DNA of 64,000 bases from the NCBI GenBank assembly GCA_016618385.1, contig JABFOP010000807.1, positions 152,216 through 216,215 of the forward strand, in the 5' to 3' direction. This DNA is from Nymphon striatum. Lineage: Eukaryota. This document shows positions 15,462 through 64,000 of the stretch, piece after piece. Both the position numbers and the translations under genes were made by a program. Below the pieces are notes generated by a model. That model was not told the DNA's origin. It worked only from the letters and a program-made list of their open reading frames with translations, and made no database searches. Position 1 is the stretch's first letter, and each line of letters starts with the position of its first letter.

Positions 15462-18400
15462 TTAATAGTATGAATCTGAATATGATCGAGAGCGAGATCT
15501 ATACAGACTTCTTGATCTAGACCGTGACTTTTTGAAGGAATATGCTGGTGAACTTCTACTAAATTTACGGGGCGAATAACTTCTACTCCTTGATCTTCCG
15601 CGACTGTAATCATCTTTTACATAAATATGTGAGGTTTCACCCTGAAAAATCAAAAACATCAGTTTTTCATAATTACCTTTAAATTTATCAAATTAATCAA
15701 TATCAATGTATTACATAATGATTTAATAACACACTCAGAAATTAAAAATAAAATGCAGTATAAGCAAGAGAACCAATAATATATTATCTATCAAAATTTC
15801 CTACAATTTTCAGATAAGTTTTATTCTCAATTGGAGGTGAATGGTTATAAAAAAAAAAAACCAATAAACTAATTCGGTCAGGCCAAAGAAGCATAGCTTC
15901 ACTAAGATATTAAACTTGAGTCAAAATTTGGATTTCTCGATTGTCATGATATTTATACTACTTGCAGGGTACAAAACAGACGATCGTCGCATTTAGTCAA
16001 TAAACATCTTTCCGAACAATACTCGGCGATTCAACACTTTTGTGTGTTCCCTAAACTTTTAGGCCTCTCGAACTGCATGCCAACTCAATTTTTTTTTACA
16101 TTTAATTACACAGAATCAAATTAATCAGTATAATTATCATAAAACCTAACTTAACTTAACCTACCGTATTTTCCGCACTATCAACCGCACAGGATTAACA
16201 CCCGCACCCCCACAAGGGTCATACAAAATCCACACAATCTCCGCACCGTCTTATCACCCGCACCTCTCCAGTGAGAAATTTCCCGTCTGCTGTACACTGT
16301 TATAGTGTATCTCCACCACGCACATCGGAATGATAGTCATATATCCGAAATACAGTGATAATCCTGAGTTTAATCGTCACGATCCTCATCAGATTCGAAT
16401 CCATCGAAATCCTCGCCTTCCGTATCGCCATGGAACAGATCGTAATACAGCTGGGCCAACAGACAGTGCATGGCCGCTGGGAGGTGAACAAACCACCTCG
16501 TTCGTTGACAATGATTGGCTTTAGGGGTGATATTACGGAGAATGAAAACGTAGAAATTACAATATACAACCGTAAGACTACTTCCCTTCAATTTGGATAT
16601 CAAAATGATATGGATATAAACAGGAAATTTGGTAATTTCTTTACGCCATCTTCGATAGTGCCGTCATCATCATATCAGTCTACTGTCGATGCTGCGATTG
16701 CTTGTGTATCGGTGTATGCATGGGTTGAGTGCAATGCAGGGTGTCTTTGCGAGTAGCGACCGTATATATTTTTTTATTTCTTTCGGAGTTGGCTGTGTAT
16801 AATTGATCCCAGTTGGAGCAATTTAAAAATTATTTTAAATTATTTTCAAAGCTATCTGTCATTATATGAAACTAGTTACATATCCTCTATTTATCACATA
16901 ATAGATGTTATCAAGTGCATTGTGCAAATAATTGTGATATATTCCACGCGTTGAACACCATGCAATAACATCAGATTGGAATAACTTAATAATTGTGTTA
17001 TTCCACTAATAATAATAAAAAAATTTCAAATATTCCTCCACGCACAGTAAACAGATGCCATTGTTGTCTTGCATACTAAATTCAAGGTAATTTTTTGTTA
17101 CATATTATATATGGACATTATCAATTTCTACCAATATCCATATTGTGATGGCTTGCAGAAATACAAACAATGTTGGATTGTTGCATATATCTCATATCAA
17201 ATGGGAACTCATTTTATTATAAACATTTGGTTGTCGTAAGTTTGAAATCTTCTGTTTTTCGTTTTGTCCTACACATGCTAAATGTTTGTTAAATATTAGG
17301 ACCATTAGAAAGCACAGAAAAGAAAGTAGAGGTAGCTCTGAGACAAATGAAGAGCGGAAAGGCATTAGGACCAACAGACAAGCGATCTATTAAAGGCAGC
17401 AGGAAAGAAAGGAGAGAGAGAGGGGATACCAGTAGACTGAAAGAAGTACAACCATACCAATTTATAAGGGCAAAAAAGATGCTATAGATTGTGGCGCTAC
17501 TATTCATCGTAGTAATGGATAGTGTATTTGCAGATGATTTAGTATTGACAGCAGAATCACAGCAAGAAGTACTGGAAACGTTCGAGAGATGGAGATAAGG
17601 AATAGAAACAAGAGGACTGTGTAAACTTGGATAAAACAAAGGTAACGGTAACTGAAAGCGATATTAATTAATATGCAAATTTCTCATTTATGCAATAACA
17701 TAGTAAACAATACCCAAGATTATGACATATTAATAAAATGAAATCACACATACAATTGATGAGATAGAAAAAATAAATTCAATAAATGATACCTCATGGG
17801 AACGGAACTTGGATTCATCCAACTTTTTCACAGCATATTTCATATCTTCATACCTTAAAAATTCAACTACTCCTGTGCCATCTTTAAACACATCAGCATA
17901 GCATACATCACCAGCTTCTCTCATGTGGTCTTTTAAATCTTGCCAGCTACCAGTTGAAGGTAAGTTAGAGACTTGTACACGATACTGAGAACGCCTTGCA
18001 GGAGGCCCACGTCCCCTCCCTCGAGGTGCATGAGATCTATGACCACCACCACCTCCTCCTCCTCCACCACCACCTCCTCCTCCACCACTGCCGCCACCAC
18101 CACCACCTCCGCCACTACCACCACCACCGCCTTCTCCTCTGCTTCCTCGTGGAAACTCGACTCTCAGTTTATAACCATCATAATCATACCCATCTCTTGC
18201 ATGTACAGCATCATCAGCATCTCTGAAAAATAATGTTTCAGATATAGAATCCTTTATAGTTGAAAATATTCTTAAAAACAGAATTGTAGCCTGAAATAAT
18301 GCCACAATCGACGTCACAATGAACCATGACTGCTTCCTAACAGGCATTTTTTCAGGCTTCTTACTGGCATTGATTATTAAAAAATTAAAATAACAATGTG

Positions 18401-21400
18401 GCAGAAGACAAATAACAAACAAGTTTATTCAGTCAGCCAAAACGAAATAAAAAAGTCAGGTGCACAGTAATTCATAATATAAAAAGCGAACTAACTACTA
18501 GAAACCCAAGTATAAAACAAATTAACAGAGGATTTTCCTCTACGATTGGAATGTTCTTTAAATGGAAAGTCTAGTGGTCATTACAAAACTGGCCAGGGTT
18601 TCCGCTGCCAGTCGCCAACGGCGAAAAAATAAAAAAAATGGCGATAAAATGATTTGCCGAAAACAATCGTTTTTTATAGGTTTGTTTCTTGGCGAAATTG
18701 AGGCCGTTATTAGGAACATAAATTAAAAAATTATTATTCACAGAGGTTAGTACAGTATTACGGTAAACATTATATTTGATTTCGGTTCTTATTTTGTGTA
18801 ATTATGAGTAAAATGTGTTGTGATGTCCTAACGTTGAATTTTCGTACCTCCAACTGAGCGCTCGGACGAGCCACATTTTCACCGTCACGATTACGGCATG
18901 GAAAATTACCCAATCCGGGTAAACAGGCCTCAACGAAATGTGGTCGGTACCGGCGAAATATCTACTACCTTTTTTATACACAAAATTTCTCTTTACTAAA
19001 CATCTCGATCTGGCCTAGGGAGCAATATAACACACAGCCAAAAACACAGTACGCAGTACTTTCACGCATGTATTTTAGGCCGTATGCGAGATCGCGTTTG
19101 AAAATTCCGCAACCGAAAAGCATATAAAAAGTTTTAAAATGCGTTATTTGAAGTATAAGAGTATTTCCATTTTATCTTTTACAGGGTTCGTACGTGTCCT
19201 TAAATTTCCTGAAATTTCATTTTAGTCCTGAAATGTCCTGAAAAATGTCAAAGTTAGTCCTGGAATACCCCCCTCCCAAACCCTCCCCGCACGTAAAAAA
19301 TATTTGGGATAATTGTGGCGAAAAAAATATAAGGTCCAGTGGAAACCCTGACTGGCTGTGTGTTGTTATTTTTGAATTGAGTTTAGCTTTTCAAAACATG
19401 ACCACACATTAAATTCGAGTTTGATTTCTTTAAACTATACCACCAAGCTAATCTCTCGACTCTCAGCAGATTAGGTGTCAACTGCTGGGCATGTGGGATT
19501 AATGACACCATATAATGTCCGAAGCATCGTATCCATGACATTGACACATTAAACATAAGCACAAAAATGTGGCTGTGCACCAATCACCAAAATCCAACTC
19601 CGGTCGTCCAAAGGGCGACTGGACACATAGCTGGCTAACCTTATGCTCCAGTAGCGATTGCCTGCGCTAGCTACGCCACGTGTAACCCAAAATTACAGAT
19701 TTTTTCAGACGGAGGTGTTCTTGTGTTTAAACATTCATTTTCATAATTTCGAGAAGTAAAGCCTGGAAGTTGAAGAAAGAGCACGAATTTGGGGTGAGGG
19801 AAACTTTCAAGATAGTTATAATCATCATTTATATGTTCACTGCTTGATAGTTGAACAAATGAGTGCTGGGGGAGGAGTCATCAATGGTGGCGTGATTGGT
19901 TGTTACAGTGTTACAGACGCTGGGTAGGTGGGTGGGTAACAATTTTGGTGAAGAAAGATAGTGTACGTAATTTTTTCATTTTCATTCACTCGAGCGCTTT
20001 GTATTGCGGAATGTGTAATTATTTAACTGAATGTAGAATCATCATGAAATTTTGTCAGAATAGAGACAAGATATAGTTGTATATGTTGATTTACCTTTAA
20101 AGACCGTTGGTTGAGTAGAAACTTTCACTACGGTTGATAGTAAATGACATAAATTTTCGGATCGATCACAGACACACTAAACTATGTCCGAAATAAAAAA
20201 TTTTAAAACTAGGTTACTGGGGGTTAACTCGATCGACTCTAGTGACCGCCAATTCCAGGAAAATCTAGCACTGAGAGCCAGTGAGAAGCGAGAATTAGGG
20301 AGTCCCCGCTCAACCAGATTTCATTCCATGGAACATGGATTAAGACACGATTTGAACATTTACCATCATACCTATTTATTGTAGGAAAGCAGCGTTTCAA
20401 AATGTATACATTTTTTACTTTTTAAAATGATCTCGTTTCGCAACCAGTGGTAGGCACCGGTGAATCCGTCAGATGGCGCTGCAAAATATGTAACACTCTG
20501 TAACACGGAGATACTATTGCCCTACGTCAGCAAAGGGCTGCCAAACATGAATTTGAAAACATGTTTTTTTAAAATGGCCATTTCATCGTTTCTCATGTTA
20601 AGATACACATTGTATGGGTCACAACAAATATTTGGGATATCCCGTGATCATTTGACCGCCTTCATTTTTTAACTTTTGTCTGCTAAATTTATAAAATGGC
20701 GATCGGAAGATAACCCAAATTTCACCGTTATTAAAATAGCTCACGCATCTAAACGGAGCCATGAGCAACATTAAAACATTGCTTTTAATAATTTTGAGAA
20801 ACTATTCTATCATTTAATCTTCGCGAAATTATGATACCTGTAGCACTTTAGGAGAAATAAAGCCTTGAAGTAGAGGCTTTTTCGTTCGTGTTGCATCAAA
20901 TTCAATGTCGTTAACATGGCATCTGGGGAGGGAGAAGTCAATAGAGACGTAATTATGACGTCACCACAATGTGTTCGGGCAATAAGTAACATGTAAAGTA
21001 TAGAAATTCGAGTGTTACAAAAATTGGTACATTTTTGACTCTAAAAACTGCTCTCGTTTCCAAATCAGTGGTCCAATTTGACCCATGTAAAAAGCATATT
21101 CACCCATTTTCCATAGGCTTTCCAGTGTGGCTGAAAAAAATCCTGTAAGAAAATATTTATTTTTTTATGCCGGTGCCTACCAGTGGTCCAATTTCCAATT
21201 TGGCTCATTTTTATAGGCTTTCCAGTCTGCCTGAAACGGATCAAGTGGTGACAGATTTTTTTTTTTTTTTTTATACCGGTGCATCCTCCTCGGCCAAAAG
21301 AAAATTCAAGTGAGAATCAATCTTCAAAATTAAATAGATTAAAATTATTTGGGCCGTACCCCTAACCGCACTATTACGAGAGCAAAGGTCGTAACTGCAT

Positions 21401-21637
21401 ACAGATTGATTATAATGAAGAAAAACCATTGAAATAATATTAATTAATAGGCAATAAACATAACAAAGACCTTGGATCTTCAAATTCAACAAAAGCAAAT
21501 GGAGGCCCACGGCGATTCTTCAAATCAATGAAAACGATTTTCCCATATTTATAGAACAGATCTTCAATATCCTTGCTTCGAATATCAGGAGGCAAATTAC
21601 CAACGTATACTCTACATTCACTGTTTCTATTTGACAT
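15462..21637 (-). CDS. SRSF1: SR splicing factor, SRSF1/SRSF9 (ASF/SF2) ortholog. CDS = join(complement(21471..21637), complement(17793..18222), complement(15462..15641)), 258 aa.
   Basis: Exon 1 translates [56 protein letters not shown] (RRM1), with donor AAG|GTCTTT. Exon 2 follows acceptor TTTTCAG and reads [29 protein letters not shown], a ~40-residue Gly/Ser hinge, then [66 protein letters not shown] (RRM2), with donor GAG|GTATCA. Exon 3 follows acceptor TTTTCAG and reads [59 protein letters not shown] (RS domain). Splice phases are consistent (2/1, then 0/0). The match to human SRSF1 is near-collinear. Confidence 0.85.
17290..17650 (+). mobile_element. Non-LTR retrotransposon (LINE) reverse-transcriptase fragment, internally deleted, in SRSF intron 2.
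   Basis: The + strand translation contains [20 protein letters not shown] (RT N-terminal motif) and [22 protein letters not shown] (YxDD box region), joined out of frame. Confidence 0.6.
18040..18135 (-). repeat. (GGN)n coding microsatellite that encodes the expanded glycine hinge of SRSF.
   Basis: ccaccacc/tcctcc runs on the + strand read as Gly codons on the - strand ([30 protein letters not shown]). Confidence 0.9.
18594..19350. mobile_element. MITE-like TIR element, family 'CAGGGTTTCC' (TIR CAGGGTTTCCRCTG), with a 6-bp direct repeat ACTGGC at both flanks.
   Basis: The left end is cagggtttccgctgccagt. The right end is ccagtggaaaccctg. The flanks are ...aACTGGC|cagggtttcc...ggaaaccctg|ACTGGCtgtg. 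It sits in SRSF intron 1. Confidence 0.75.
21050..21262. repeat. Tandem ~110-bp repeat x2 (cagtggtccaattt...ataggctttccagt.tg.ctgaaa...) in SRSF intron 1.
   Basis: Two adjacent diverged copies, each followed by a T-rich tract and tgccggtgc/taccggtgc. Confidence 0.7.
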
Positions 21638-21960
21638 CTTAAAAAGGATATTAAATTAAGAATTCTAAATGCGTTGAACGAAGAGATTGAACAAGCACGC
21701 TTTTCCGAAAACGTAATCTCGCACCAGGGCACCAAGAGAATTAAAAATTTTAAAGTTAAAATTATTTTGATATCGTATCATCCTTATTATATTAATATAA
21801 TTTAATTTTATATAAAATGAATAACATTACATTAACTTATGGGACATAATATTTTTAGATATAAAAATAAAAGCGGGAAAAATTTGCACATTGCATTCTG
21901 GGCTGATAGAAGAACCTGCCAGAAAATAGATCATATCATCCAATCATCATTCGAGTAGAA
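21638..21960. promoter_or_regulatory. Putative bidirectional promoter region between the divergent SRSF (-) and DYNLL (+) genes.
   Basis: The SRSF start codon at 21637 (minus) and the candidate DYNLL exon 1 (plus) are separated by ~300 bp. Human SRSF9 and DYNLL1 are arranged head-to-head (from memory). Confidence 0.35.
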
Positions 21961-22059
21961 TAGGGCCAAGAACTCGTGTTGAAAAAAGTTGTAGAAGCGA
22001 CAGCTCATAACATTGTTGTTTGAAGTGACTAAATTTGATTTGATTTGATTAATCTTGTG
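21960..22059 (+). other. Candidate non-coding first exon of DYNLL (5'UTR), with splice donor GTG|GTAAGT at 22060.
   Basis: A strong consensus donor (GTAAGT at 22060-22065) lies ~3.7 kb upstream of the acceptor TTTTTAG (25732-25737) that directly precedes the DYNLL ATG. It sits ~320 bp from the SRSF start codon on the opposite strand. No expression data are available, so this is inferred only. Confidence 0.35.
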
Positions 22060-22609
22060 GTAAGTTTAGTAAATTAATGTAATCTTTCATTAGAAATTTA
22101 GGCGTTTAGAATCCATTATATTTAAAGATTTTACACTGGAGTCACTTAATTTTTTTCGCACTATTCAATTCATGAATGATTTTTCTACATCAACTCCAGC
22201 CAGAGTCGAGAAGTCTTTATTACAATGAGTTAATCCTGTAATGAATATAATATGGGTTTTCTGTTGAATTTTTTCTCAATAGACACTCCATATTTAGAGT
22301 ATTTATTTAAAGATATAATTTTTATATCAATTATTAATTCGGATTGGTTCGTATCTAAATCGGTACCGGCTGTCAGAAATTTGAAATGCGGAGCCTGAAG
22401 AGGCTGCGGGTACGACTGGTATTTGGCGTTTAGAATCGAAGTTATACTCAATTAAGACTTTTCTTATTTCTTGATTGAATTAACCTCCTGATAATGCCCA
22501 TATTGTCATAATGATACTCCCGTAGAATGAAAGAGGAGAGTATGTTGCCATTGTTGGTGTTTGAGTGGTTAGATCATTAGAAATTAATTCCAATTCAATT
22601 AAGGTAGTG

Positions 22610-22750
22610 TCTATTTGACCGGTAGCCGGCCACATTTTGTTTAAAATTGTTTACCCGGAGTCAATCCTGATTGGGTAATTTTCCATGACGTCATTGTGAA
22701 TATGGCTCGTCCGAGCGCTCAGCTGGAGGTACAGAATTTAACGTTAGCAC
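22610..22750. repeat. Inverted partial copy of the internal segment of the 18594-19350 element, related to 1270-1330.
   Basis: ggctcgtccgagcgctcagctggaggtac...ttttccatgacgtcattg is the reverse complement of gtacctccaactgagcgctcggacgagcc...ggcatggaaaattaccc at 18835-18965. Confidence 0.7.
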
Positions 22751-24139
22751 ATACATTTTAAGCAGTGTCTTTTTTGCCGGAATCGGGCACATTTCGCTCT
22801 AAAGTTATTTTATCCGATATCATGTCTGAATGGCTAAAACTGTACAGAGATTTGAAAACGTCTCTTGATCAGCCTGCGGAATAGCTAGGTTAAGTTAATA
22901 ATAATTATAATGGATGGAAGATAATAATAACTGTGTATTATAACAGAACAAACTTTACCTAACCTATTCCGATCTAGGCTGATCCAAGCCTGGGGATTTC
23001 AGATTTTATCGGTAACAGTTTTTCAGTTCCGTACTTTCTCTTCATGGGAACCCAAGGGAAATAAAATTTCGATTCCGTGCTTAAAGTTCATAGGAACCGT
23101 TTTTTTTTTTTTTTTTTTTTTCCCAGTCATATTCAGCTGTTTTAGGGCTATTCCAGAAAATTGTACATGGGGGACAGAAGGTACTTTTTTCATACCCCAA
23201 CAACCCGTTTAATTTTTTACCATGCGTCATATAAAATTTTATAAAAATAAATAAACTGATAGGAAACGAAATTTCTTCTGGTAATTATGCGTACTAGATC
23301 CGAGTCGGCGCTGCTTATCCTGAAACCAGAAATCAATTGCTGGATCTGCATTAAAGTTTTCAATACTGGTTTTTTCACTTTTACGGAGACATACTTTCAG
23401 CATTGGCCTGCCTAAGCTGCTTCTGTGATCATTAGCCAAAATTAATATTCAAATCTTCCATATTCTATCATTTTCAAGATTGACGAAAAAATTTTTGTCG
23501 TACCGATACGATTTACGGCATAATTATCAAATTATTCCATCATTTTTAAACAAAAGCCTAGATTTTGATTTGATGTTTTTTTTTCAAATAGTTTGTAGGC
23601 AATATTTAAACTCGCTGCCTCTACCATGCTGTTTATTTTCTTGAATGTAATGAGGGAAAAGTTAAAATAGCATGGATACCCAGGCTAGTAGCGTAATTGC
23701 AATTCATGAAAGTCAAAACTGCTATCTCACATCGTAAAAATAATGTGTGACCCCAAACAATTTTTTTCTGCAGCGCTATTTTTTTTATGAACCGTTTATA
23801 AATCCTTATTTCGGGCCTTGTGTATGCATCGGTTTCATGAAAGAGCTGTGTAGTATTTTCTTAATCTAATACAGTTGCATCAAAGACAAAAATACAATGA
23901 CATGTTATTATTCATTTGCTGATTAAAATGAATAGAAAGTGTATTTGATGGTGAATCTGCATGAAAGATTTCGGGAAAATTGTATATAATGAATACATAC
24001 CTGAAATTTGAAAAAAGTTGTCATAGAATACAGGTTCAAGGGTGAAAGTATTCCGGAACACGTCGGATTCTCCGGTTTTTACGGGTCTTGAAGGGTCGTT
24101 TTTCCAAATCGTGTAAATCCGTTGAGATTTTTTTTCAGA

Positions 24140-24410
24140 GTGGGGGGGAGGTATGACCCAACTCCTCAGATTTTCGATAGTTAATTTCTCAAAAGATACT
24201 GGCAGACTGGTTTTAGAGAGAAAATACCCCGTCCCTCGGATAGGACGTTAATGGAGTTCCAGTGTAAAGGAGAGTCATACCCTCTATACGTTAAAGAACA
24301 CACTTCACTATTCGGATAAAGAGTAGGGTAATCCTGGTGAAGTGTAGCACCTGCGTAGAACACGCAGAACACCTATTCTTGACTTTTAAAGGACCCGTAC
24401 GAACCCTGAA
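24140..24410 (+). mobile_element. Fragment of a SINE-like repeat that shares its 3' tail with the 39428-39820 SINE.
   Basis: gtgaagtgtagcacctgcgtagaacacgcagaacacctattcttgacttttaaaggacccgtacgaaccctg matches gtgtagcacctgcgaggaacgctattcttgactgcgg. Confidence 0.4.
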
Positions 24411-24859
24411 TTCCTACAAAATATGAATTACTATGGATTTTAAGATTATTTATAAAATGAAAACCTTTATTGCACCAAACTCACAAGGGTTTTTTTTTTT
24501 TTGAGTTTAGTGCAACAAAGGTTTTTAAAAAAATTAAAGAAGAAATAAAAAAAAAATCATAAAAACACTCCAGTTACATGAGTGAAGGTTTTTCAGGTTT
24601 TTCAAAATTTTCAACTCTCACCCATGCAGGTTAAATACTTCGGAAATAAAATTAATTTGCTTTAATTTTGTCATTTCATGTCATGTTTTAGCTATGAATT
24701 ATGACAACCCTAATAGATATTTAATGGGCAGCATAAATAATTGTGGGTGTCACATTTGAAGGAGTGCTTATGCACCACACCTTAAGTGAATAAAATCTCA
24801 TTGCCATTTATAGAAGCAATTGATTATTACTTTTTTAGTTATAATAATATCCATGTGTG

Positions 24860-25015
24860 AATAGTTTCAACTTTATTAAATATTGATAATAATAATATTT
24901 AAATTCTTTGGCCTAACTAAGCTATAGATATCTGAAATATTGAGATTTCAAATATCTATAGCCTAGTTAGGCCAAAAAATTTAAATATCATTATTTAATA
25001 AAATTTAATATTTTT
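24860..25015. repeat. Near-perfect palindrome (hairpin MITE-like), with core ggcctaactaagctatagatatctgaaatattgagatttcaaatatctatagcctagttaggcc.
   Basis: The self-complementary sequence is centred at ~24940, and the flanks extend the inverted symmetry. Confidence 0.8.
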
Positions 25016-25754
25016 CTGAATATACTTCTAAATGTAATTTATCAAAACACACTTTTATTCATGTTTAATATCTGTTAAAATATAAAAAAAAAAATTTAAT
25101 TTCATAATTTTATTTTCATTCAGAACCCCCTATTAATGAATACACAAGAACGCATCTTTGTTCATTCCATTCCATTCAGAAATTATGTCTCTTTTTTTCA
25201 TTTTTTTTTTTTTTTGCCAAAATTATCACCCTACCCCCATAACATAACACTTAACCATACCCCCTAAAAATTACGTAACAAATGTATGAACCCCCCCCCC
25301 CCCCCCATTTTTCCTGGCCAAAGCACTCTAAAAAATACCAAACTTGCAAAATTTGGCCTTTAAATAGGCCAATCTGACAATGCTGATGGTGTTATGTAAC
25401 ACTTGGCCAGATACACACCCCCCTAGTAACACTAGGATACATTTTCAACACATATTAAAGTGTTTTTTTTTTTTAATTTTCTTCAATTTCATTGAAATAG
25501 ATAGTTAATTCTGGGACAGGGACACCTTGTATAGAAGAAAATGAAATGATCTTATATTAACGTACATTTAAATATATTTAAATGATAATCAGAAGGCATG
25601 CATGGATGCACTAAATTAACATCTCCAAAAGTATGTGTAAGGGTTCAAAGAAAACTACAGTCTTCTTTGTATTTATTTATGTATTATGCTGATAATGATA
25701 ACCATGATAATTTATGTGATTTTTATCATTTTTAGGCAATCAAAATTTGCAGCT

Positions 25755-26024
25755 ATGACAGACCGTAAAGCTGTTATCAAGAATGCTGACATGACAGAAG
25801 AAATGCAGCAAGATGCTGTTGACTGTGCTACTCACGCATTAGAAAAGTTCAACATCGAAAAAGATATTGCAGCATATGTCAAAAAAGAATTTGACAGGAA
25901 ATACAACCCAACTTGGCATTGCATTGTTGGCCGTAATTTTGGTAGTTATGTTACTCATGAAACAAAGCATTTCATATATTTCTACATCGGACAAGTGGCA
26001 ATCCTCTTATTCAAGTCTGGATAA
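25755..26024 (+). CDS. DYNLL: Dynein light chain LC8-type (DYNLL1/2 ortholog). Single coding exon, 89 aa.
   Basis: The translation [89 protein letters not shown] is ~90% identical to human DYNLL1 over its full length. An acceptor TTTTTAG lies at 25732-25737, just upstream of the ATG, implying a 5'UTR intron. Confidence 0.95.
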
Positions 26025-26264
26025 TTTAGATACGATGATCAAATAATACTAAGTATGATAGCTGTAAATTCTGTTCACCGCTAAAGGCGCTTAAAAGTCA
26101 AATTTAGATGTATTGTTCTGCCAATTGTTTCATCCAATCTATTAATATTAATATGATATATTATTTCATATAAGTTTGACTTTTTTTTTTCTTCAGTGTA
26201 CATATTGATAGCACTAACTTATTTATTTAAGTTTGAAGGGGAGGCCAATGAGATGGGGGATTCC

Positions 26265-26692
26265 AGCGTTATGTGTGCGACATCCAGACACTATTTTCAC
26301 CCTTTTCACTTAAAGAACTTTTCTTCGACAGTTAGATTTTCTTTCTTTCACGTAATTCTTCAATACATAACTATAGCCTGATATTACATTTCATTTTTTT
26401 TCTAAATCTACAGGAAAAGTTAACGTTAACATTCAGTCAGATGGAAACGGCCTCCAGCTTGCCATAAACCCATGTGAGTTTAGTGCAATAAGGTTTAAAA
26501 AAAAAAAAAGTTAACGTTACGTGTGTGCGCGCACTTCTCCTGTAGATTTAGAAAAAAAATGAAATGCAAACTGGTAACATCCGGCTATGGTCATGTATCG
26601 AAGTATTACGTCAAAGAAAGAAAATCTAACTGTATAAGGAAAGTCTTTCAGTGAAAAGGGCGAAAATAGTGTCTGGATGTCGCACACGTATT
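26265..26692. repeat. Foldback inverted repeat (arms 26265-26425 and 26512-26692, ~85% identical; ~85-bp loop) 240 bp downstream of the DYNLL stop codon.
   Basis: The reverse complement of 26512-26692 aligns to 26265-26425 (gtgtgcgacatccagacactattttc.cccttttcact.aaaga...ttagattttctttctttcacgtaat.cttc.atacat...ttctaaatctacagga.aag). Confidence 0.8.
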
Positions 26693-27033
26693 GCTAGAAT
26701 CACCCAGAAGCACTTTTGGAAGAGAGCCATATGATTTTGGCTATGAATGCTATTTTGATTCAGAAGTCATGCAACAAATATTCCATAATAATTGTGAAAA
26801 TTTCATTCCTTTACTCATCATCTCTAATTTGTTTTCAATATTTTTTTTTTTTTTTTTTGATAGAGAAAGAAAATTTTAATTAAATCATCCAGGATTTTAG
26901 GTTGTTTTATAAGTTTACAATGTATGTTCATATAATAAAGTGTTGAGGAAAAACTATTCAGAAATAATTTTCTTTTTGTCGAGAGACGAAAGTTGGATGC
27001 TTTGGCTTTTATATATTCAAAATATATATATAC

Positions 27034-27433
27034 ACGTGCGGAACCTTTTATCCGAAATCCTTGGGACTTGGGACTTTTCGGATTTTGGAATGAAAATTTT
27101 TTTAAGTGAAAAATACAATAAATATATATGTTATTTTAAAGTTTTTTGGTTAATTACGCATACACAAAAGTATTTTATGACCCTGCTCGGTGCTGTTTTT
27201 TGTAGTCCGAGAGGCTTGGTTATTCGCTTTCTGTATACTGTAGTAAGTTACTTAAATTCTTTCAATTTACTAAAGTCACACAACATAAACGCCTTAATTA
27301 TTTTCTGGTTAACTATTCCTGGCACAACATGTGGATTGTTTCCGGTCAAGTTTGGCGCCAAACGCGAATTTTTATTATAAATTTTGGAAAAAAAAGTCTG
27401 GTTTTAGGAATTCCGGATAAAAGGTTCCGCATC
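27034..27433. mobile_element. MITE (~400 bp) with ~25-bp TIRs GCGGAACCTTTTATCCGRAAT.CC.
   Basis: acgtgcggaaccttttatccgaaatcc (27034-27060) is the reverse complement of ggaattccggataaaaggttccgcatctg (27405-27433). The interior is AT-rich and non-coding. It lies in the DYNLL-COQ5 3' intergenic region. Confidence 0.75.
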
Positions 27434-27578: not shown

Positions 27579-31842
<4,264 letters not shown>

Positions 31843-38056: not shown

Positions 38057-38175
38057 GTAAGTATAATTTTGCTTGTGATAATGGGATAGAGGTGAAATTA
38101 GTCTACAATGTGTTTTGTAATTGAAATTTGCATGAATGTACCATATATTTTTTAATTGAGGCCAATAATAAAAAA

Positions 38176-41955: not shown

Positions 41956-42377
41956 AGGCTCCCAAACTATATCTATAGAGACATCCTTCTTAATAATAAT
42001 AGTATTATTTATCCATTTGTTCCTCAGTTAAATACCATGTTTTATTGGGTTGGATTTCATGACCTTTGTTTCAATCAAATTATCTCCAAATCGAAAATTA
42101 CTGGTAGATCTAGATATACTGTTCAAGAGATATTTGTTGTAAAATTTAACTTCAATGAAAAAATTAAACATCCACATTTAAAGAAACAAGAATTTATTAA
42201 CAACAATTCACTCATACTTTTTAACTGACATTCTGTAAGAAGCTTTTTTTATTTTAATATTACAGCACAGGGAAATACTTAATGCACAACTTAAATTAGA
42301 AACATGTTGAAGCTATACAATCAAGGACAGCTTAGGAATCTCATAAAAAAAAAAAAAAAAATCTAATGCAGTCAAAT

Positions 42378-48584
<6,207 letters not shown>

Positions 48585-51295: not shown

Positions 51296-51480
51296 GGTTC
51301 TCCCCATTTCGTCTTGCAATAGCACCTTAGCCGAGCTACGTCATAGCATGCGGACAGAAGTACATTCTAATAGCACCTTAGCCGAGCTACGTCATAGCAT
51401 GCGGACAGAAGTACATTCTCCCCAACATCAGTGCATTACGTAAGATCTATTTTTAGATCTTGGCTAAGGTGCTATTCCGA
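51296..51480. repeat. 52-bp tandem duplication plus an inverted partial copy (agcaccttagccgagctacgtcatagcatgcggacagaagtacattct x2 ... ggctaaggtgct).
   Basis: Direct inspection. It lies in the RAN-STX intergenic region. Confidence 0.8.
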
Positions 51481-53375
51481 TCATTTTGATATATAGTTTT
51501 ATACACTTCCTTTGATAAATATTCTTGTTATAACCGTTACAATTTACTACATGCAAAAAAGTCACAATTTTGACACTGTTTATCATTGAAAATTTGAGGT
51601 AATTTAATTGCTGAAAAAAATTCATAAATTTGGTTGTAATCAACGTAGAGCCAAAAAGTAGGTATTTTGGAAACTATAATTACAGCTGTATACATCGAAC
51701 TTACTATTTTGGATGAAAGTACAATTTGAAATTTTAGCGAGCAGCGGTACGCATCCTTTTAAAATTGTGTGTACGCCGAAAATCAATATATCGGACTTAC
51801 ACAACTATATGAAATCGTGTGTATGCCGAAAATAATCCGCACCCAGATTCTGAGACCTCCATCCTAACCTACCGCACGCCTAGATTAGGTATATCACTAA
51901 AAATATGAAAGTTGTCCAAATATAGTTTAAATAGGCTCATCTGATAGATCTTAGCAACCAAAAATAAGGGATTTAAAATTTTAAAAATTATCTGAAGGTA
52001 ATTTATTTCATTTTAAAGTGCGACTTATACGCTCCTGATTACGGTATCGCTCATCTAAGTTTTTTTCCGGGTAAACAACAGTTCTGATGGGTAAAAAATC
52101 TTTCTGGATGTTGTTGCGGTGGACAATCCGCAGTAGCTTTTGGGGGTTAGTTCTAGGGTCATAAAAGTGTGGATTGTACGTGGGGGTTTACGGTAATTAT
52201 AATAAAGATCAAGAGAAAAAAATAGATCTGATTTGGTCAATTTCTTGATTTTAAAAATAGTTGTGTGGTACCCCAGTCACTGAATTATTTAAAATTAGGG
52301 ATTATACATAACCACACAAAATCCGGGTGTAACAGCAAGTGTCGTATCCGTATCCTCTGCCATTTAGCAATGGCCGACCATAAATCTTGCATGATTTACA
52401 TCAATTTAAAAAGTATGCTTTAGCATTCTTAGAATGTTATGCATACTTGATAATTTCTTGTCAAAATTTAGAACACACGATTTAAACGATTGATCAATCA
52501 AATTTCATTCTCGCTTGCCGATTTAAATTAAATGTGTTCATTTGACTAAATTAGGAAGGAATTGTTGTTCAATCTCAGTCGGCAGTTTCAAAAAACATTA
52601 AAAAAAATCTCAAAATGCTGAACTACGAGGAATACAATTTGAAATGTATGTGGAGAATAAGAAAATCGATTTTAACATTTATTAGGTATACCACACAGAT
52701 ACGAATTCACCGAGAACAAAGGGAGAGAGAGCGCGAGCAATGAGAATGAAGGTAATGGTGCTGGTACTGATGAAAAATTATCCTCATCACCCATTTTGCA
52801 TGTTTAATACAAAACTATGAAGAAAGTGTCACTAAAATTATAAAATATTGCTTCATTCATAAATATAGATCTAAAATCTAACCTGTAATAGGAATGATGA
52901 ATAACAATCGAGGTGGATGATAAGAAATTTTGAAGGATTGCGAGCAACCGGCAACACCGAGGAGAGCGGGAAGAGTAATTCGCCACTGGTTTGGCTGAGG
53001 CGGTTTAAACTGGAAATCGCGGGTGTGAGTTCGGCATTTTCCGGAAAAATACATTTTAAACTTTAGAAATAGTTTGTCAAGCAGAGTTTATTGACCATTA
53101 TTTTGACCATATAATCATACATTCTGACATGGATTTAAATAGGTTTAATCTATCCTTTATATTTAAATAATGAGAATTAATTTTTTTTTTTAATTGTCGT
53201 GCGTCACATCCGTCTTACGGGGCGTTTTCCGGACTTGCGTACTATATAGCTGTCACCGAACGGCTGGAAGACTTGTATTGATTTTTTCATGAGTTCAGGT
53301 TTTTTCTGTCTGAGTGTTCAAAATTCCGATTGATATGTTTCATTAGTATTTAGAAAACTCTATACATCAGCAAGT

Positions 53376-56300
53376 ATGACGAGGGATAGGCTCCAAGCTC
53401 TTAAAAGTGTAAGTATAGAATTTGTATGTGTTTTTTTAAATCAAACATGGCTTCAATACGGCGAATTTCCGTCGACACCAAGCCAACAACATTTCACATG
53501 ATAAAGTCTTGTTATTAATTTAAAACATGTCTTAATATTTAGGCTCAAAGTGAAGATGACGATGTGGGGCCCGAATCGGTTACTGTTAATATGGATGGAT
53601 CGGTATTCATGGAAGCCTTTTTTGCTGAGGTAAGCCTTAAAGTTTATAACTTAAAACTGAAGAATGAGGCATGGCTGAAGCCATGGATTACTGACAACAT
53701 TTAAGTAATTTGTTTTACTTTTGTAAATTATTCTCCTTCACTCAGTTTTGTTTGTATGGTTTAAATTGATTCTATTGTTTCTACATTAAACTTATAATTT
53801 GTGATCACACCTGTTTTTCACACCGTGAATGAGAGATCTTTCTTTCAGTTCATTTAAAAATGGGTTGTAAATGTGAAGCTTCAAGTTGGTAAGAAAATCA
53901 ATATGAAGCAATGCCATGTGTATTATAGTTTTATTATCAAACAAATATATTTCATTTACCGTTAGATGTATCGGTAATGAAACAATATACTGTTCTGTGA
54001 AATAACTTCATTCAATATAATTTGGTGTATTGATTACCTATCCTAACCTAAGAGACAAAATTTGCCATTTTAAATGTTCAATATTTTGGTTGATAAGTCA
54101 CAATAAGTTGTGAAAGGAATGAAAATTCATACCAAAGGCAAAGCAAAGGTAATAAAGAACTGCCATCTGATCTGAATGTAGAGGAAAATACATTTTTTTT
54201 TTACTGTTATTATTTTCAAATTATATAATGTGAAATTGTTCCTACCAAATATTTTTAGTTTAATTCATTGTCTTCAACTTATTTATATTGACTATTCATA
54301 TAGACCCCTTTCAATGTTATTGTTTACATATGATGTGCGCGCAACTGACAGGCAAAACACGTTTCTCTTATGCGATATACAGTACTCAATGTGTTACCTC
54401 TGTCAGCTGAGAAGAAATTAATATATATTTATGAACCTCAACAACGAAGAAATCTTAATTTTATCTATTTGAAATGCCGGACAGTTGCTGCGCAGTTGGA
54501 TGTGCAAACAGACGAGAAGGAAATAATAAGACCTTATCACTTTACAATATTACATAACGCAACCTGGATGCTGAACTTACGCCAGTCCCGCTTGATCGAA
54601 CATACATAGAATACATTCTGACAAATTAGGATTTTACTATCCTTTGGTAGCCAGCTCTGTGAATTAAAAAATATTACTAAAATTCAATTTTTAAAGTTCG
54701 ATACTTTCTTTAAATTCGTATTTTTGCGGTTGGTTTTTCCAAGCACATATGAGTATTGGTGAAAAGGTGACTCACACGGGGTGAAACCTCGATGTGAAGA
54801 TTGCTAAACTGAAAAATGTTTACAAATTAATCTAATCTAATCTAATAATTTGCAATGCAGCCATGTTCAAGAATCATGTTTTTTTTTACTGCATTTAATG
54901 AAGTTAATTTTTGAAAGTGTTTGGAAACTTTTTCTTGTTGAGAAGAGGGTTTTGGAAGACTGGAAAAGCAGCAGATAATGATTGACGGAGCAGCTTGAGC
55001 TGGACACTGCTGCTAAGCATGGGTGTTCGCTACTTGAGTTTGCCGTGGTTGTTAGTAGATACTCCGGGGCAGAATTTTGTACCTTGCGTCAAAATACCCC
55101 GGAAAATCTCTTTTCCGCCTGATTTGGAAAAAAATTATTTTCATATTCTTGCAGAGGATTAAACTCTTCACCTATGTAAGTATTCATGGAAAACATCTAA
55201 ATATGAGATGGAGGGTTTTTTTCTCCTCAACAAGAAAAAGTTTCAAAACACTTTCAAAAATTAACTTCATTAAATGCAGTGAAAAAAAATATGATTCTTG
55301 AACATGGTTTCATTGCAAGTTATTAGATTAGATTAGATTAATTTGTAAAAAAAGTTTTTCAGTTTAGCAATTGAGTCACCTTTTCATCAATGCTCATACG
55401 TGTTTGGAAAAATATGTTTTAATTCACAGAGCTGACCTAACAAAGGATTGTAAAATCCTAATTTGTCGGAATGTACTAGAAGGAGGGTACCCGTCCCTGA
55501 CGGGTTAGTTCGATCAGTAGGGAAGAGTATCAGCCAAAATATATAGTGGATATGATCCCGTCTCGATCGGATGAAATTGAGAAATTGACGTTACTCGGTG
55601 ACCTTTGGATTTGACCTTGGCCCCCTATGTCCGTTCCCGTGACCTAAGGATTATTCATGCCAAGTTTCATCTCATTCCATCCAGCGGTTTGGCCGCCTAT
55701 AAAGGACAAACAAACACACACACACACAGTCTATCTTTTTAGTATACTAGATTCTCTGTATGTTTGATCGAGCGAGACTGGCATAAGTCCAGCATCCAGG
55801 TTGGGTTATGTAATATTGTAAAGTGATGAGGTCTTATTATTTCCTTCTCGTCTATTTGCACATCATGCAGCAACTGTCCGGCATTTCGAATTGATAAAAT
55901 TAAGATTTCTCCGTTGTTGAGATTCATAAATATATATTAATTTCTTCTCAGCTGACAGTGGTAATGCATTGAGTATAGCATGTAAGAGAAGTGCTTTGCC
56001 TGTCAGTTGCGCGTGCATCATATGTAAACAATAACATTGAAAGGGGTCTATTGACTATTCATATTAATTTTATATGGAAACGTTTTGTTTTTCTGTTATA
56101 AGTGTAATTTATTTAATTTCAAATAGAAAAATTATCATAAATTGCAGAAAATAGTGACCACAATAAATGTGCATTGAATTTTCTTCTTCTGTCTTGCTAG
56201 TTAACGTAAATATAAGTATTAAGTTAGTTGAATAATATTGAAACCTTCAGTTCTTTTCATTTAGTTACTTCTTATTGGTTTTGATTTAATATATATTTAA

Positions 56301-59300: not shown

Positions 59301-62300
59301 TCATTTTCAATATTCAAAAGAGTTAAATAGTGTAGCCGCTCTTGCCCTACCGGGCCATCCTTTAAAAAATGTTTGTTTAGGGTAACATGACCAGTTTGAA
59401 AAATGTGGGTCGGTCGGTTTTTTTTTTTTTTTTTTTTTTATTTCCTCCTCTAATCAGATAATGGCCTATGAAACGCACAACAAAGACTAACATAAATTTT
59501 TTTTGCTACAGTTGGAAATAAAATTATTTCACTCAAAAAAGCTGGAAAAAAAAATATGAGTCTGGCCATTTTTTACGGTCGGTCGGGTTACCCTAAACAA
59601 ACAACTTTTTATTATTGGCCTATGTGTTATTTTTTAATTATCGATAGTTTTTAATCAACTTCAATTTTGTATCAGTTTTCCTCCAACTGACCATAATGAA
59701 GGGCCCTATCTGCTATGTCATATGAGACGATTTAAAATAAAAAAAATTTTGCTCACCACGCCTTTGTGAAGACGGGGCCCATAGCAGCTGCTACATCTGC
59801 GACTACGTTAGTCTGGCCCTGTCAGTAAGGCACACAGGACACAAACTCTGACAAATCTTCCCCTTCCAGAGCAGCTCAAATTGTCTTTAATGAATCTCTT
59901 CAAAAATAGTAATGTGATAATTGTGCACAAGTCTCAGGTAACACCTGTTATTATTATTAAGTATAAGTTGGACATATAACCTAACCGTTTCAAGTCTGAA
60001 TAAGGAAAATGCGCATATTGCATGCATGCAGGAGCATATTTTTATTATAACATCTTATTTATTTACATTAAATTTTTACTCAAGCTCCAATGTTTATTAT
60101 GTTTATTTATAGCATTTCTTGTGCAAAATGGGATATGAATTTTTTTTTTTTTTTTCGCTTTCTCCTCTATTTGTGTCTCTTCCATCATGACATGGCTTAA
60201 GCAGGGTTTCCACTGGACCTTATATTTTGTTGGCCACAATTATCCCAAATATTTGTTACACGTTTGGGAGGGGGTATCCTCCTCTCGACCTCAAATTTTT
60301 TTTGATTAGCTGTATTGATATACACTATTTTAAGCATATCTAGCACTTTTATGGTGTCGAAATGTGGCCGGTACCGGCAAATCATTTTTCCGCCATTTTT
60401 TTTTTTTTTTATTTTTTTGCCATTGGCGAATGACAGCGGAAACCCTGCTTAAGTATTACCATAAATATAAAAGCCATGTATTTATTTTATCATTTTGGGT
60501 TATTCACTTCTGGAAAAAGTATTCTTCTTTTAATTTATAGACATATTACCTTCATACTACTGTCTAATAGTAATATGCTAATAAATTTCAGGTGGAAGAA
60601 ATCAGAAATAACATAGAAAAAATCCAAGCAAATGTGGAAGAAGTCAAAAAGAAACATAGTGCCATCTTGTCTGCTCCACAGTCTGATGAAAGTAGGTGTT
60701 TGTTATGACTATAATATGATGTTATATACATTTTTTTTTTTTTTTTTTTGTGTGTTTAATTGAATCCATTGATATGTCGAGCTAGATTTAATCAATGCTT
60801 TATGAAAATCAAATAGAAAATAGACCTTGCATGCATTAAATTTTTGAATAGCCACTTCTTTTTTCCTGCAATTCCTTTGCCTGTGCAGACAAAAATAGTC
60901 AAGATGCCCAAAGCAGACATTTGGTATCATGATGGATATTTTATTTTTATCTCGTATAATTTATGTAAAATATCTTCTTCTTTCAATGTTTTGGCCGATA
61001 AATTATTTAGGTATGGGCAGCTATGAGAAAGGTTGTTTTTATATGGAGAATGTAATTCCTCTGGATATTAAACAAAGCTATTTATTTAATTGATTTATTT
61101 AATTTAAAAGAACCACAAAGTGGAATAAAAATACACACATCGTACATTTATAAATAAGTAGCAAGATAATATGACTAAAAATGTGTTAATGTTAGTAAAA
61201 AAAATGTTAGTAAAATTCAAAATTCAATTATTTTTTAGATAAATATTATTATAAAGTTTAATTGCCTGTGGAATAAAAGAGTGTTTATGTCTGTTGGTTT
61301 TAAAGGTGGTAAGAGTAATCTACTAATACCTCGACGGGAACGTTGTTGCTCCAGGCACTTATTAAGAGGATGATTTTTATCCTCCAGTATAATTGCTAGT
61401 TTAGATTTTATTCCTGAGCCGTATATGGTATTCATACATACTTCGGGTGAACCTATTAGACGGCTGGCCCTTTTTGGTCACTCGGAGCAATTTGTATTTA
61501 ATTTTTTCACTGATGTTCCCATACCAGCTGACCAGGCAGTATCGCCAGACTGAGCACAGACTGAATTAAAAAATATCTTTAGAATTTGTTGCCGGACATC
61601 AAACTTTTTTCATTTTGTAGAGACAGTAGAGCAGTAGTTGTATCAAGGCTATTCTAGAAGTTCACTGGTCCAAGATCATCAAAGCATGAATTTTTCTGTC
61701 CTAGGAACTCAGTTCTAAATTCATTCTAAAATTGAGTCTGAAAAATGTAAATATTGTCATTTATTGTGAACCCATAATTTACAAATTTTTGCAAGGATAA
61801 AATTCTATAATTGGAAGTAATGAAACATCCTCTGGAGAATCCAACTATTCCACTGATTTGATAATTACATGTAATAAAACTCTATCGTATGTGCAATTTA
61901 CTATTAGTGCCGTGAGATAATCAGGGGTGAAAGTTAGTCTGTCAGATGACGGAATTCCGTAACAGAAAATATTTTCTGGGTCGTTCCTGAGTTTAGCGCA
62001 AATTTGTTGAAAAAAAAATTGTATTTATGAAATAAAGGGCAAGAGTGTTAAAAAAATTTCCCAGTCCCCTCCCCGCGCTTCAGCAGCTGTACAGCTTCAA
62101 ATTTCAGTACCAGAAAAATTAACAACTTTCACCCATGGATAATTGAAAGCTATGCAAAATTAGAATTTTCCTGAAGAAATTATTAAAATTTACTGATATT
62201 GTGATGTACTCCTATAAATGGCTGCAACCCTAGGTCTAGACACTTAAGAACCCAAAATATATGGTATTGCCCTTGAAGTCTACTTTATTTTATCATGGAA

Positions 62301-64000
62301 CAATGTATCTTATTATTACTCTTATTTTCATTTACAGAGGTCAAGCAAGAATTGGAAGATCATATGGCAGATATTAAAAAAACTGCAAACAAAGTACGGG
62401 CAAAATTAAAATGTAAGTTTGTTGTGCCTAATTGAAGAGAAAAAAGAAGAACCTTATATTAAAAACTAATTCATCAAAAATAGTTTAATGATTTCAACTT
62501 TAAATTTGTAATATTTTGATGTTTATTTCCCATAGTAATAGAACAGAATATAGAGCAAGAAGAGCATTCTAGTAAGCAATCATCTGCTGATTTAAGGATA
62601 CGTAAAACTCAAGTATGTATCGTATGTGCAAGCATGTTATTTTGTTTTTAATGTTTATGCGAGAGGAACGGAACCCATACATGATGCAGGGAGGGAAGTT
62701 ATATGCTTAATTTAACCGAATAAAATATTGTTGAGGAATTGGATAAAAGTGTTTCCCCTTTCAAAGCTGTAAAGAAAATTTCAGAAGGGAAATGGAGTTA
62801 TTTATTTACTTTGAATGCATTCTAATATTCTTTTATTCTTTGGGTATAAATTCGTCTGTTTAAAATTTTCAGTTTAAATAATGTACCGTGAAAATACTTC
62901 GATTCAGCACTCCTTCAGCTTGAAATCTGTGTCATCAGACAAATGTAGTTTTGAATTGGTAGTCATGTATTTACAATTTTTGGAGCCCTAAACATTATGC
63001 ATGTGTAAAAGAACTTTGACAATATGCAGACCAAGTATTTACCAATTAATATGAAATACCTGTGAAACAATTTATAGTAATTTTGTTTGTAATTAGCAGT
63101 TACCGCTGTTATTTCTAAATGTTGGAAATGATAATTTTTTATGAATTGTAGGAGAACTACTTCCGGAATTCATTTATCTGTATGATATGATTTGTATTAT
63201 AATGTTCTCCCTCTTTTTTCTTTTTTTTTAATTTTTAAATATGTATCCTGTTGCATCTTAACAAATAACTGAAGCAGTTGCATGGTTGCTTCTTAGATCG
63301 CTATTGACGATGGTAGATGCTGACGTCAGACGCCCTGGCAGAGTGCCTCCCAGTGTAAAGAGTGTAAAGAGTGATCAACAAGTTATAGAGTTAAAGATCA
63401 GATGATTTTATTTACAAATTATACAAGGTTTATATAGTCTGGGAAAGAGGATTTGGGATTGAAATGAGATTTCTATCTCATTGGCTGATTGCTTCAAACC
63501 TCTTGGATTGGTTTACTTCAAACCACTTGAACATTTGACAGATGGTCGAGGTGTCACATCTTGAGGCAAACGGAAGTGGCGTTTCCGCTGGGTCGTTGTG
63601 ACATCGGACGAAAGTGAAAGTGAAACGTAGGTGTGGTGTATTTTATTGGTCGTTATGACATCTGACGAAAGTGCTGGTGGCGTCTAAAAGGAGGGAGAAG
63701 AAATAATATTAATGGCCTCGGGTCATTCACTTCTGTGTTTGTTGCAGTATGTTCTGCTACATAACTTTTGAATGGTATTTTTGACCGTAGTAAGGATGTA
63801 TTGGTATATTTATCGTTTCATTTTTAAATGTGCAACGTTGACACCATAGTGTGTAGTGTGAAATTTTGAGAAGAAAAATAATTTCAATAACTGTTTCTTT
63901 CCACTTTTGTAGCATTCAACACTGAGTAGAAAGTTTGTTGAAGTAATGACAGACTATAATAAAACTCAAACAGATTATAGAGAGAGGTGTAAAGGACGGA
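53376..64000 (+). CDS. STX1: Syntaxin-1 family t-SNARE (STX1/STX2 ortholog), 5' part only; the gene continues beyond the window. CDS exons are 53376..53408, 53543..53629, 60592..60691, 62338..62412, 62536..62612 and 63913..>64000.
   Basis: The translations are [11 protein letters not shown]; [29 protein letters not shown]; [33 protein letters not shown]; (K)[24 protein letters not shown]; (L)[25 protein letters not shown]; [29 protein letters not shown]. This is collinear with syntaxin-1A Habc/linker regions such as [30 protein letters not shown] and [22 protein letters not shown], and is very close to Aplysia syntaxin. GT-AG junctions and phases are consistent (0, 0, 1, 1, 0). A candidate 5'UTR exon ends near 53022 (donor GTGTGAGT) and an acceptor CATCAG lies just before the ATG exon. 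Confidence 0.85.
54290..56060. mobile_element. Large foldback element: long inverted arms (54290-54960 versus 55130-56060) around a ~170-bp unique core. The right arm carries a ~255-bp nested insertion (55483-55738).
   Basis: 54290-54620 is the reverse complement of 55740-56060 (~90%). 54640-54960 is the reverse complement of 55130-55450 (~88%). The right arm has an extra segment ctagaaggagggtacccgtccctgacggg...cacacacacacagtctatctttttagtatactag that is absent from the left arm. The whole element sits in STX intron 2. Confidence 0.8.
58062..58520 (-). mobile_element. LINE ORF2 C-terminal fragment, same family as 28119-28462, frameshifted.
   Basis: Minus-strand translations read [28 protein letters not shown] and ...[21 protein letters not shown]. 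The nucleotide sequence is ~85% identical to 28119-28330. It sits in STX intron 2. Confidence 0.7.
59370..59603. mobile_element. MITE family 'GTTTGTTTAGGGTAAC', copy B, inverted relative to copy A.
   Basis: tgtttgtttagggtaacatgaccagtttgaaaaatgtgggtcggtcgg...ggccattttttacggtcggtcgggttaccctaaacaaaca is the reverse complement of copy A. It sits in STX intron 2. Confidence 0.8.
60202..60447. mobile_element. MITE-like TIR element, family 'CAGGGTTTCC' (246 bp), flanked by CTTAAG on both sides.
   Basis: ggCTTAAG|cagggtttccactgg...cagcggaaaccctg|CTTAAGtatt. The internal sequence (ggccggtaccggcaaatcatttttccgccatttt...gccattggcgaatgacagcgg) matches the 18594 and 42920 copies. It sits in STX intron 2. 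Confidence 0.75.

Follow-up and report, generated by a model that had tools for sequence, protein, structure and literature searches.

Two conserved gene-order units, SRSF-DYNLL-COQ5 and RAN-syntaxin, in a genomic window of the sea spider Nymphon striatum

We analysed a window of 64,000 nucleotides from the Nymphon striatum genome assembly (contig JABFOP010000807.1, positions 152,216 to 216,215; all coordinates given here are those of the window), which carries six genes in the order SRSF1/9-type (-), DYNLL (+), COQ5 (-), RPAIN-like (+), RAN (-) and syntaxin-1-type (+). Exons were located by tblastn of the window with human proteins used purely as probes, and exon borders were set with splice-aware models in which GT/AG junctions and open frames were demanded. 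The window is AT-rich (~33% G+C) and its open reading frames are short and exon-like, which marks it as eukaryotic nuclear DNA. SRSF and DYNLL are arranged head-to-head, DYNLL and COQ5 tail-to-tail, COQ5 and RPAIN head-to-head, RPAIN and RAN tail-to-tail, and RAN and the syntaxin (STX) gene head-to-head. The genes are mutually unrelated and include no tandem duplicates, the Pfam families RRM_1, Dynein_light, Ubie_methyltran, Ras and Syntaxin all being distinct. The six identities, their order and their strands had been proposed in an initial annotation of the same sequence, and tblastn, the spliced models, Pfam and matches to PDB sequences bear them out.

The SRSF1/9-type gene (minus strand) has coding exons at 21637-21471, 18222-17793 and 15641-15462 and encodes 258 amino acids, as modelled from tblastn, splice junctions, translation and Pfam; its stop codon (15462-15464) falls exactly where the initial annotation let the gene block begin. 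The translation contains an RRM, a long Gly-rich linker, a pseudo-RRM with the SWQDLKD motif and a C-terminal RS tail (all four elements were seen), Pfam finds RRM_1 twice (4.7e-34), and among PDB sequences SRSF1 is the best match (298 bits), followed by RRM2 of mouse SRSF9 (1wg4; 137 bits) and by SRSF6 (80 bits). These sequence features place the window protein in the SRSF1/SRSF9 subfamily. The donor of exon 1 (21465-21471) is atypical, with the sequence GTCTTT; this junction was accepted because it gives the exact reading FEDPR/DADDAV and because an intron at the same position, after residue 56, is common to the window, amphioxus, Lingula and Actinia. The 258-amino-acid model has no identical protein in the protein collection searched.

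DYNLL (dynein light chain LC8) occupies a single coding exon on the plus strand (25755-26024; 89 amino acids), identified by its open reading frame, tblastn and Pfam (Dynein_light, 4.3e-43), and shares 89% of its residues with the human DYNLL1 probe. Its start codon lies ~4.1 kb from that of SRSF, and its stop codon 1.55 kb from that of COQ5. COQ5 (ubiquinone C-methyltransferase; minus strand) was modelled from junctions and Pfam in seven exons (31842-31674, 30444-30295, 30136-29912, 29823-29717, 29640-29552, 29233-29122 and 27680-27579) that encode 317 amino acids; Pfam assigns Ubie_methyltran (8.7e-92), yeast Coq5 is the best PDB match, and from end to end the model matches the GenBank protein KAG1656033.1 [Nymphon striatum] with 100% identity.

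RAN GTPase, on the minus strand, has six exons (48594-48553, 48469-48385, 46628-46503, 43687-43500, 42683-42513 and 42425-42378; 219 amino acids; tblastn, junctions and Pfam Ras, 1.1e-47) and is identical to KAG1656035.1, annotated as 'GTP-binding nuclear protein Ran [Nymphon striatum]'. The RAN and COQ5 entries belong to the same 335,549-bp contig, and their accessions are two apart. Divergently from RAN, with 4.8 kb between the start codons, lies the 5' part of the syntaxin-1-type gene (plus strand), for which segments, junctions and Pfam (Syntaxin, 2.8e-30) define exons at 53376-53408, 53543-53629, 60592-60691, 62338-62412, 62536-62612 and 63913-64000; the gene runs past the end of the window. 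Its best PDB matches are squid s-syntaxin (1s94) and then STX1A, and its best full-length database matches are insect syntaxin-1A (79-82%), with bivalves at 69-73%. The protein thus falls in the syntaxin-1 group (STX1/2/3 clade), with the N-terminal peptide and Habc region encoded in the window and the SNARE and transmembrane parts beyond it.

The RPAIN-like gene (RPA-interacting protein; plus strand) between COQ5 and RAN is incomplete. Searches by tblastn and splice junctions led to exon segments at ~34425-34601, 35718-35802, 37074-37174, 37734-37797 and 37919-38057, but to neither the first (Met) nor the last exon; Pfam reports RPA_interact_C over its cut-off (2.4e-16) and the M and N domains under theirs (8.6e-5 and 1.5e-3). 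Within exon 37074-37174 the frame is interrupted at ~37133-37145: the frame giving EKQIILEYEKNTNFTNNAVNNF ends at a TGA at 37145, HSDAVTCPICKK goes on in the +1 frame, and with one T fewer in the run at 37133-37136 the two join into one frame. An error in the assembly, a genuine frameshift or pseudogenisation, or unusual splicing could lie behind the break.

Three pairs in the window are head-to-head, namely SRSF(-)/DYNLL(+), COQ5(-)/RPAIN(+) and RAN(-)/STX(+), and the ratio of observed to expected CpG is raised in all three divergent intergenic regions. It reaches ~0.95-1.07 over 18-24 kb and ~0.85-1.1 over 49-54 kb, versus 0.3-0.8 for much of the window. For the SRSF-DYNLL intergenic region (21638-25754) a role as a shared promoter region, or as one adjacent to both genes, is presumed, and for the RAN-STX intergenic region (48595-53375) a role as a promoter region. 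SRSF/DYNLL and RAN/STX probably have their promoter regions in common or interleaved.

To compare the gene order with that of other animals, we used COQ5 homologues as anchors and rescanned ±10 kb around them in five species with the window proteins. In amphioxus (COQ5(+) 10001-20385, DYNLL(-) 20978-21247, SRSF(+) from 23381) the arrangement of the window is inverted as a whole, and the sea anemone Actinia tenebrosa has the same order (COQ5(+) to 13039, DYNLL(-) 13985-15954, SRSF(+) from 16946) with gaps below 1 kb, the annotated DYNLL and SRSF gene ends being 0.99 kb apart. The kiwi locus contains COQ5(+), DYNLL(-), a fragment match to an SRSF9-like RRM2 (+) and GatC(-), again with the relative orientations of the window, so that in all three species COQ5(+)/DYNLL(-)/SRSF(+) represents the inverted window trio with relative orientation kept. 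In the scallop Pecten, COQ5(+) and DYNLL(-) are 4.7 kb apart and the fetched flank stops short of any SRSF; in Lingula, COQ5(+) is directly followed by SRSF(+) and then by a second SRSF(-), without DYNLL, and the block is partly decayed. Identities by tblastn across the loci were 87-90% for DYNLL, 79-90% for SRSF RRM2 and 55-80% for COQ5 exons, and the best PDB match of the SR protein was SRSF1 and none of SRSF3-7; the genes at the compared loci are putative orthologues. The DYNLL coding sequence that adjoins COQ5 is a single exon in amphioxus, scallop and Actinia as well, and of the five species with the pair, all but the scallop have a gap of 0.6-1.6 kb between DYNLL and COQ5. Upstream of COQ5 each species has a neighbour of its own, be it a gene with an RH domain, an unannotated 965-amino-acid gene, one with HEAT repeats, further copies of DYNLL or a fragment of COQ5.

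The published human order is GATC, TRIAP1, SRSF9, DYNLL1, COQ5, RNF10 (PMC11061283), and a published pig gene list has the same order as the human 12q24.31 block. The claim of the initial annotation that SRSF(-)/DYNLL(+)/COQ5(-) stand as in vertebrates is therefore upheld, in order by the human list and in relative orientation by the kiwi. Its estimate that the block has been conserved for more than 550 My also holds and is conservative if anything, as the same trio occurs in amphioxus and the sea anemone. Because the geometry is the same in the sea anemone and in bilaterians, the trio is, on the sampled loci, older than the cnidarian-bilaterian split. Some of these loci contain additional copies. 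In the kiwi four DYNLL genes surround COQ5 (1-7441 and 18006-19471 of the locus): one stands tail-to-tail with it in the canonical way, and the other three form a tandem array on its upstream side, the place taken by RNF10 in human. The Lingula locus has a partial tandem COQ5 duplicate (205 amino acids; 4341-9359) upstream of the full gene and two SRSF1/9-type genes in opposite orientation downstream of it (18215-26859).

For RAN and syntaxin, the comparison covers the loci of the limpet Lottia and of Lamellibrachia together with a published cattle list. In Lottia, RAN(-) at 2203-4210 and STX(+) from 10001 are divergent and 5.8 kb apart, in the same arrangement as in the window, and the cattle table of a genome-wide association study lists ADGRD1, RAN, STX2 and RIMBP2 in one 0.5-Mb interval (PMC12828016). 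Of the proposal that human STX2 and RAN are divergent neighbours, the adjacency agrees with the cattle list; a divergent RAN(-)/STX(+) pair is seen in Lottia. The RAN-STX pair dates back at least to the protostome ancestor, and is ancestral to bilaterians if the mammalian STX2-RAN adjacency is homologous. Both syntaxin loci also contain two tandem copies of the exon that matches window residues 125-153 (34611-34704 and 35401-35487 in Lottia; 41046-41132 and 42046-42132 in Lamellibrachia); the window ends inside that exon. The duplicated copies suggest mutually exclusive alternative exons.

The initial annotation had further suggested that COQ5, RAN and STX belonged to a single ancestral neighbourhood of ~50 kb. 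The ±10 kb seen in amphioxus, Actinia, Pecten, Lingula, kiwi and Lottia lend this no support: RPAIN, RAN and syntaxin were found within 10 kb of COQ5 at none of the five COQ5 loci, so that RPAIN adjoins COQ5 in none of the five other species, and no gene of the COQ5 side was seen within ±10 kb at the Lottia RAN/STX locus. At a larger scale, COQ5 and syntaxin of the nemertean Lineus are on records of equal size (29,188,318 bp), as are COQ5 and RAN of the gastropod Babylonia (42,200,420 bp), which suggests that COQ5 shares a chromosome with syntaxin in the former and with RAN in the latter. Taken together with the position of both units on human 12q24, this points to an old linkage on the same chromosome, whereas the tight juxtaposition of both units and RPAIN within 50 kb looks lineage-specific, or is at least unproven elsewhere.

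The vertebrate block seems to exist in two copies. On human chromosome 12, MSI1 is located just upstream of SRSF9-DYNLL1 (PMC11061283), and a 976-kb deletion at 17q22 spans part of MSI2, VEZF1, SRSF1, DYNLL2 and MKS1 (PMC13106306). The paralogous pair SRSF1-DYNLL2 claimed for 17q22 is accordingly supported, both genes being in one segment of less than 1 Mb with MSI2, which mirrors MSI1 beside the 12q24.31 block. This pattern fits duplicated copies of one ancestral block. We take SRSF1 and DYNLL2 to be immediate neighbours on 17q22. Compared with the vertebrate 2R (two-round duplication) paralogon (MSI1-SRSF9-DYNLL1 versus MSI2-SRSF1-DYNLL2), the window corresponds to the state before duplication, a lone SRSF1/9-type gene next to a lone DYNLL, as is expected if the SRSF-DYNLL pair predates the vertebrate duplications; it differs in that it has no Musashi gene, and in human COQ5 was kept only on the chromosome 12 copy.

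We consider it very probable that the window preserves two ancient microsyntenic units, i.e., an ancestral and inherited arrangement in which breakpoints are disfavoured. The first unit, with SRSF1/9-type and DYNLL divergent and DYNLL and COQ5 convergent, would already have been present in the cnidarian-bilaterian ancestor and would have survived with unchanged order and orientation in the sea anemone, amphioxus, birds, mammals (12q24.31) and the sea spider; of the second copy that arose in the vertebrate genome duplications, only SRSF1-DYNLL2 (17q22) would be left. The second unit, divergent RAN and syntaxin-1-type, would be common to a mollusc and, as RAN-STX2, to mammals (12q24.33). Such an arrangement would be inherited and not convergent, and would persist since breaks between its genes are disfavoured, DYNLL and COQ5 having 3' ends (0.6-1.6 kb apart in four species) that are perhaps too close to leave more than a little neutral breakpoint space. 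The location of both units and RPAIN within 50 kb would be a feature of the sea-spider lineage on top of the older linkage. That the arrangement as such was inherited from an ancestor appears, from gene order in the loci compared, essentially certain, because order and orientation of the trio recur in four lineages while the flanks differ, and because chance adjacency is of the order of 10^-4 per pair (our own estimate for two named genes: ~2/N per genome, with N ~10^4 genes).

Several points weigh against this explanation. The view in the other species is limited to ±10 kb, and the first unit is not universal, with no DYNLL between COQ5 and SRSF in Lingula and with the genes presumably dispersed in Drosophila. 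In SRSF/DYNLL and RAN/STX the start codons are separated by 4.1 and 4.8 kb, compared with less than 1 kb in the classical signature of a bidirectional promoter, and blastn against all fetched loci revealed no conserved noncoding elements, similarity to other phyla being confined to coding exons. For the second unit, no RAN was found within 10 kb of the Lamellibrachia STX start, a result that is uninformative as the annotated model begins at the third coding exon, and the human order RIMBP2-STX2-RAN-ADGRD1 on 12q24.33 with STX2 and RAN divergent is one that we assume.

The reliability of the assembly bears on how the window is to be read. GenBank labels the source as Nymphon striatum, a sea spider (Chelicerata, Pycnogonida). 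The initial annotation had suggested an invertebrate on account of a molluscan-type syntaxin; the invertebrate origin stands, but a mollusc is rejected on the label and on the syntaxin, which is closest to arthropods (insects versus bivalves, as given above). The best non-self matches of COQ5, however, are nemertean and bivalve (59-61%), with a chelicerate in none of the top 120, and of those members of the RAN 90% cluster that bear an animal name, all but the Nymphon one are from molluscs or a brachiopod (Lingula). Furthermore, a second Nymphon striatum contig of 663,484 bp (KAG1672654.1, KAG1672655.1) has a COQ5 in the same 90% cluster as that of the window; a haplotig left uncollapsed or a recent duplication could explain it. 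Taxonomically the proteins give a mixed picture, and the sea-spider label is taken as reported. An assembly artefact or a contaminant, which would make the taxon and perhaps the linkage between the units unreliable, might account for these matches, for the near-identical COQ5 on the second contig and for the frame break in RPAIN, yet we regard it as improbable: insects and other arthropods are the best matches of the syntaxin, each unit is separately confirmed in other species, the COQ5 and RAN models match GenBank proteins two accessions apart on one 335-kb contig, and slowly evolving housekeeping proteins are often poor trackers of phylogeny. The conclusion on synteny is independent of the taxon label. 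Much less credible still, to the point of being negligible, is a coincidental or convergent gene order in which the same neighbours were joined independently in each lineage. Nothing specific speaks for it apart from the handful of species and the short flanks compared, and it is effectively refuted by recurrence in multiple lineages, with the oriented trio in sea spider, amphioxus, sea anemone and bird and divergent RAN/STX in both sea spider and limpet, at chance adjacencies of ~10^-4 per pair per genome.

A more serious question is what kept the genes together. The ancestral arrangement may have been retained neutrally, without functional coupling, owing to small gaps in slowly rearranging lineages (cnidarians, amphioxus, molluscs, vertebrates and the sea spider), a possibility to which we give real weight though somewhat less than even. 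The gaps of merely 0.6-1.6 kb between DYNLL and COQ5 in four species are consistent with it, as are the lack of conserved noncoding sequence by blastn against the fetched loci and the absence of a known functional relationship among SRSF, DYNLL and COQ5; the decay of the block in Lingula and, as we presume, in Drosophila and C. elegans is typical of fast-rearranging genomes. Against neutral retention stand, on the other hand, a three-gene order and orientation that at least four lineages have kept over more than 600 My while the flanks differ in every species, an SRSF-DYNLL gap of several kb in which breakpoint space exists, and the finding of Irimia et al. that conserved pairs are 5'-5' enriched and co-expressed beyond neutral expectation (PMC3514665). 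A bolder proposal, which we think unlikely on balance, is that selection has maintained the trio as a regulatory unit for more than 600 My, that RAN-syntaxin is a second such unit, and that the 50-kb neighbourhood is what remains of an ancestral cluster, once tighter, on the linkage group that became human 12q24. SRSF and DYNLL would then share a divergent promoter, the convergent 3' ends of DYNLL and COQ5 would possibly overlap, and vertebrate STX2 would be the positional heir of the ancestral syntaxin-1-type locus.

The preferred explanation, two inherited microsyntenic units, places the window in a known class. Irimia et al. (2012) described nearly 600 conserved ancestral microsyntenic pairs (CAMPs), which are enriched for 5'-5' orientation, short intergenic distance and co-expression (PMC3514665). 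The window resembles CAMPs in having unrelated genes that are neighbours across cnidarians, protostomes and deuterostomes, with SRSF/DYNLL and RAN/STX in 5'-5' orientation, and its members are mostly housekeeping genes, as in the 'coregulated pair' class, e.g., HSPE1-HSPD1. It differs from them in that the start codons are 4-5 kb apart and not <1 kb, and in that DYNLL/COQ5 is a 3'-3' pair and hence outside the promoter-sharing model of that study (PMC3514665). Unrelated members, adjacency in multiple lineages (protostome, deuterostome and non-bilaterian) and conserved orientation are all found here, so that the units would qualify as CAMP-type. Genomic regulatory blocks likewise show long-term linkage of unrelated genes; this class was rejected, as Pfam and blastn revealed neither a developmental regulator or transcription factor in the window nor a conserved noncoding element. 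With respect to human 12q24.31 and 12q24.33, the window agrees in the order SRSF/DYNLL/COQ5 (with the kiwi as a proxy for orientation) and in the position of RAN beside a syntaxin of the STX1/2/3 group. It differs from mammals in that the two units are ~11 kb apart with only RPAIN between them, whereas we take the mammalian 12q24.31 and 12q24.33 blocks to be ~10 Mb apart and human RPAIN to be on 17p13, and in that its syntaxin is syntaxin-1-like, while the mammalian neighbour of RAN is STX2.

An explicit description of the SRSF-DYNLL-COQ5 block was not found in full-text literature searches; it may already stand in published genome-wide microsynteny lists. As hundreds of such pairs have been catalogued, the class is known and the result is real but expected, with no new kind of biology. 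What it adds is a three-gene block with order and orientation intact from the cnidarian-bilaterian ancestor to humans, and a second block of two genes. These blocks can anchor orthology, the ohnologs that would hold the ancestral position being SRSF9/DYNLL1/COQ5 and STX2/RAN, and they are useful in the reconstruction of ancestral linkage groups and as a paralogon anchor. They are also candidates for testing whether shared promoters or tight 3'-3' spacing act as the glue of housekeeping pairs.

In the rest of the window, probes for the human 12q24.31 neighbours TRIAP1, GATC, POP5, MSI1 and COX6A1 found no counterpart, no Rfam RNA genes were detected, and the ten longest leftover segments of open reading frames gave no significant Pfam match. 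Positions 1-15,461 have the appearance of tandem repeats and transposon debris. Fragments resembling transposon debris, all below Pfam significance, comprise mariner/Tc1-like pieces of open reading frames at 11306-12210 (-), a LINE/RTE-tail-like open reading frame at 28119-28409 (+) within the last COQ5 intron, and a THAP-like fragment at 54459-54554 (+) in intron 2 of the syntaxin gene. Upstream of the gene block there are three tandem-repeat arrays: one at 5153-5887 with units of 24, 59 and 70 nt, one at 6061-7222 with a 225-nt unit repeated 4.3 times at 98% identity and followed by related units of 60-133 nt, and one at 8519-8965 with units of 50 and 181 nt that is rich in TGATATCAC.

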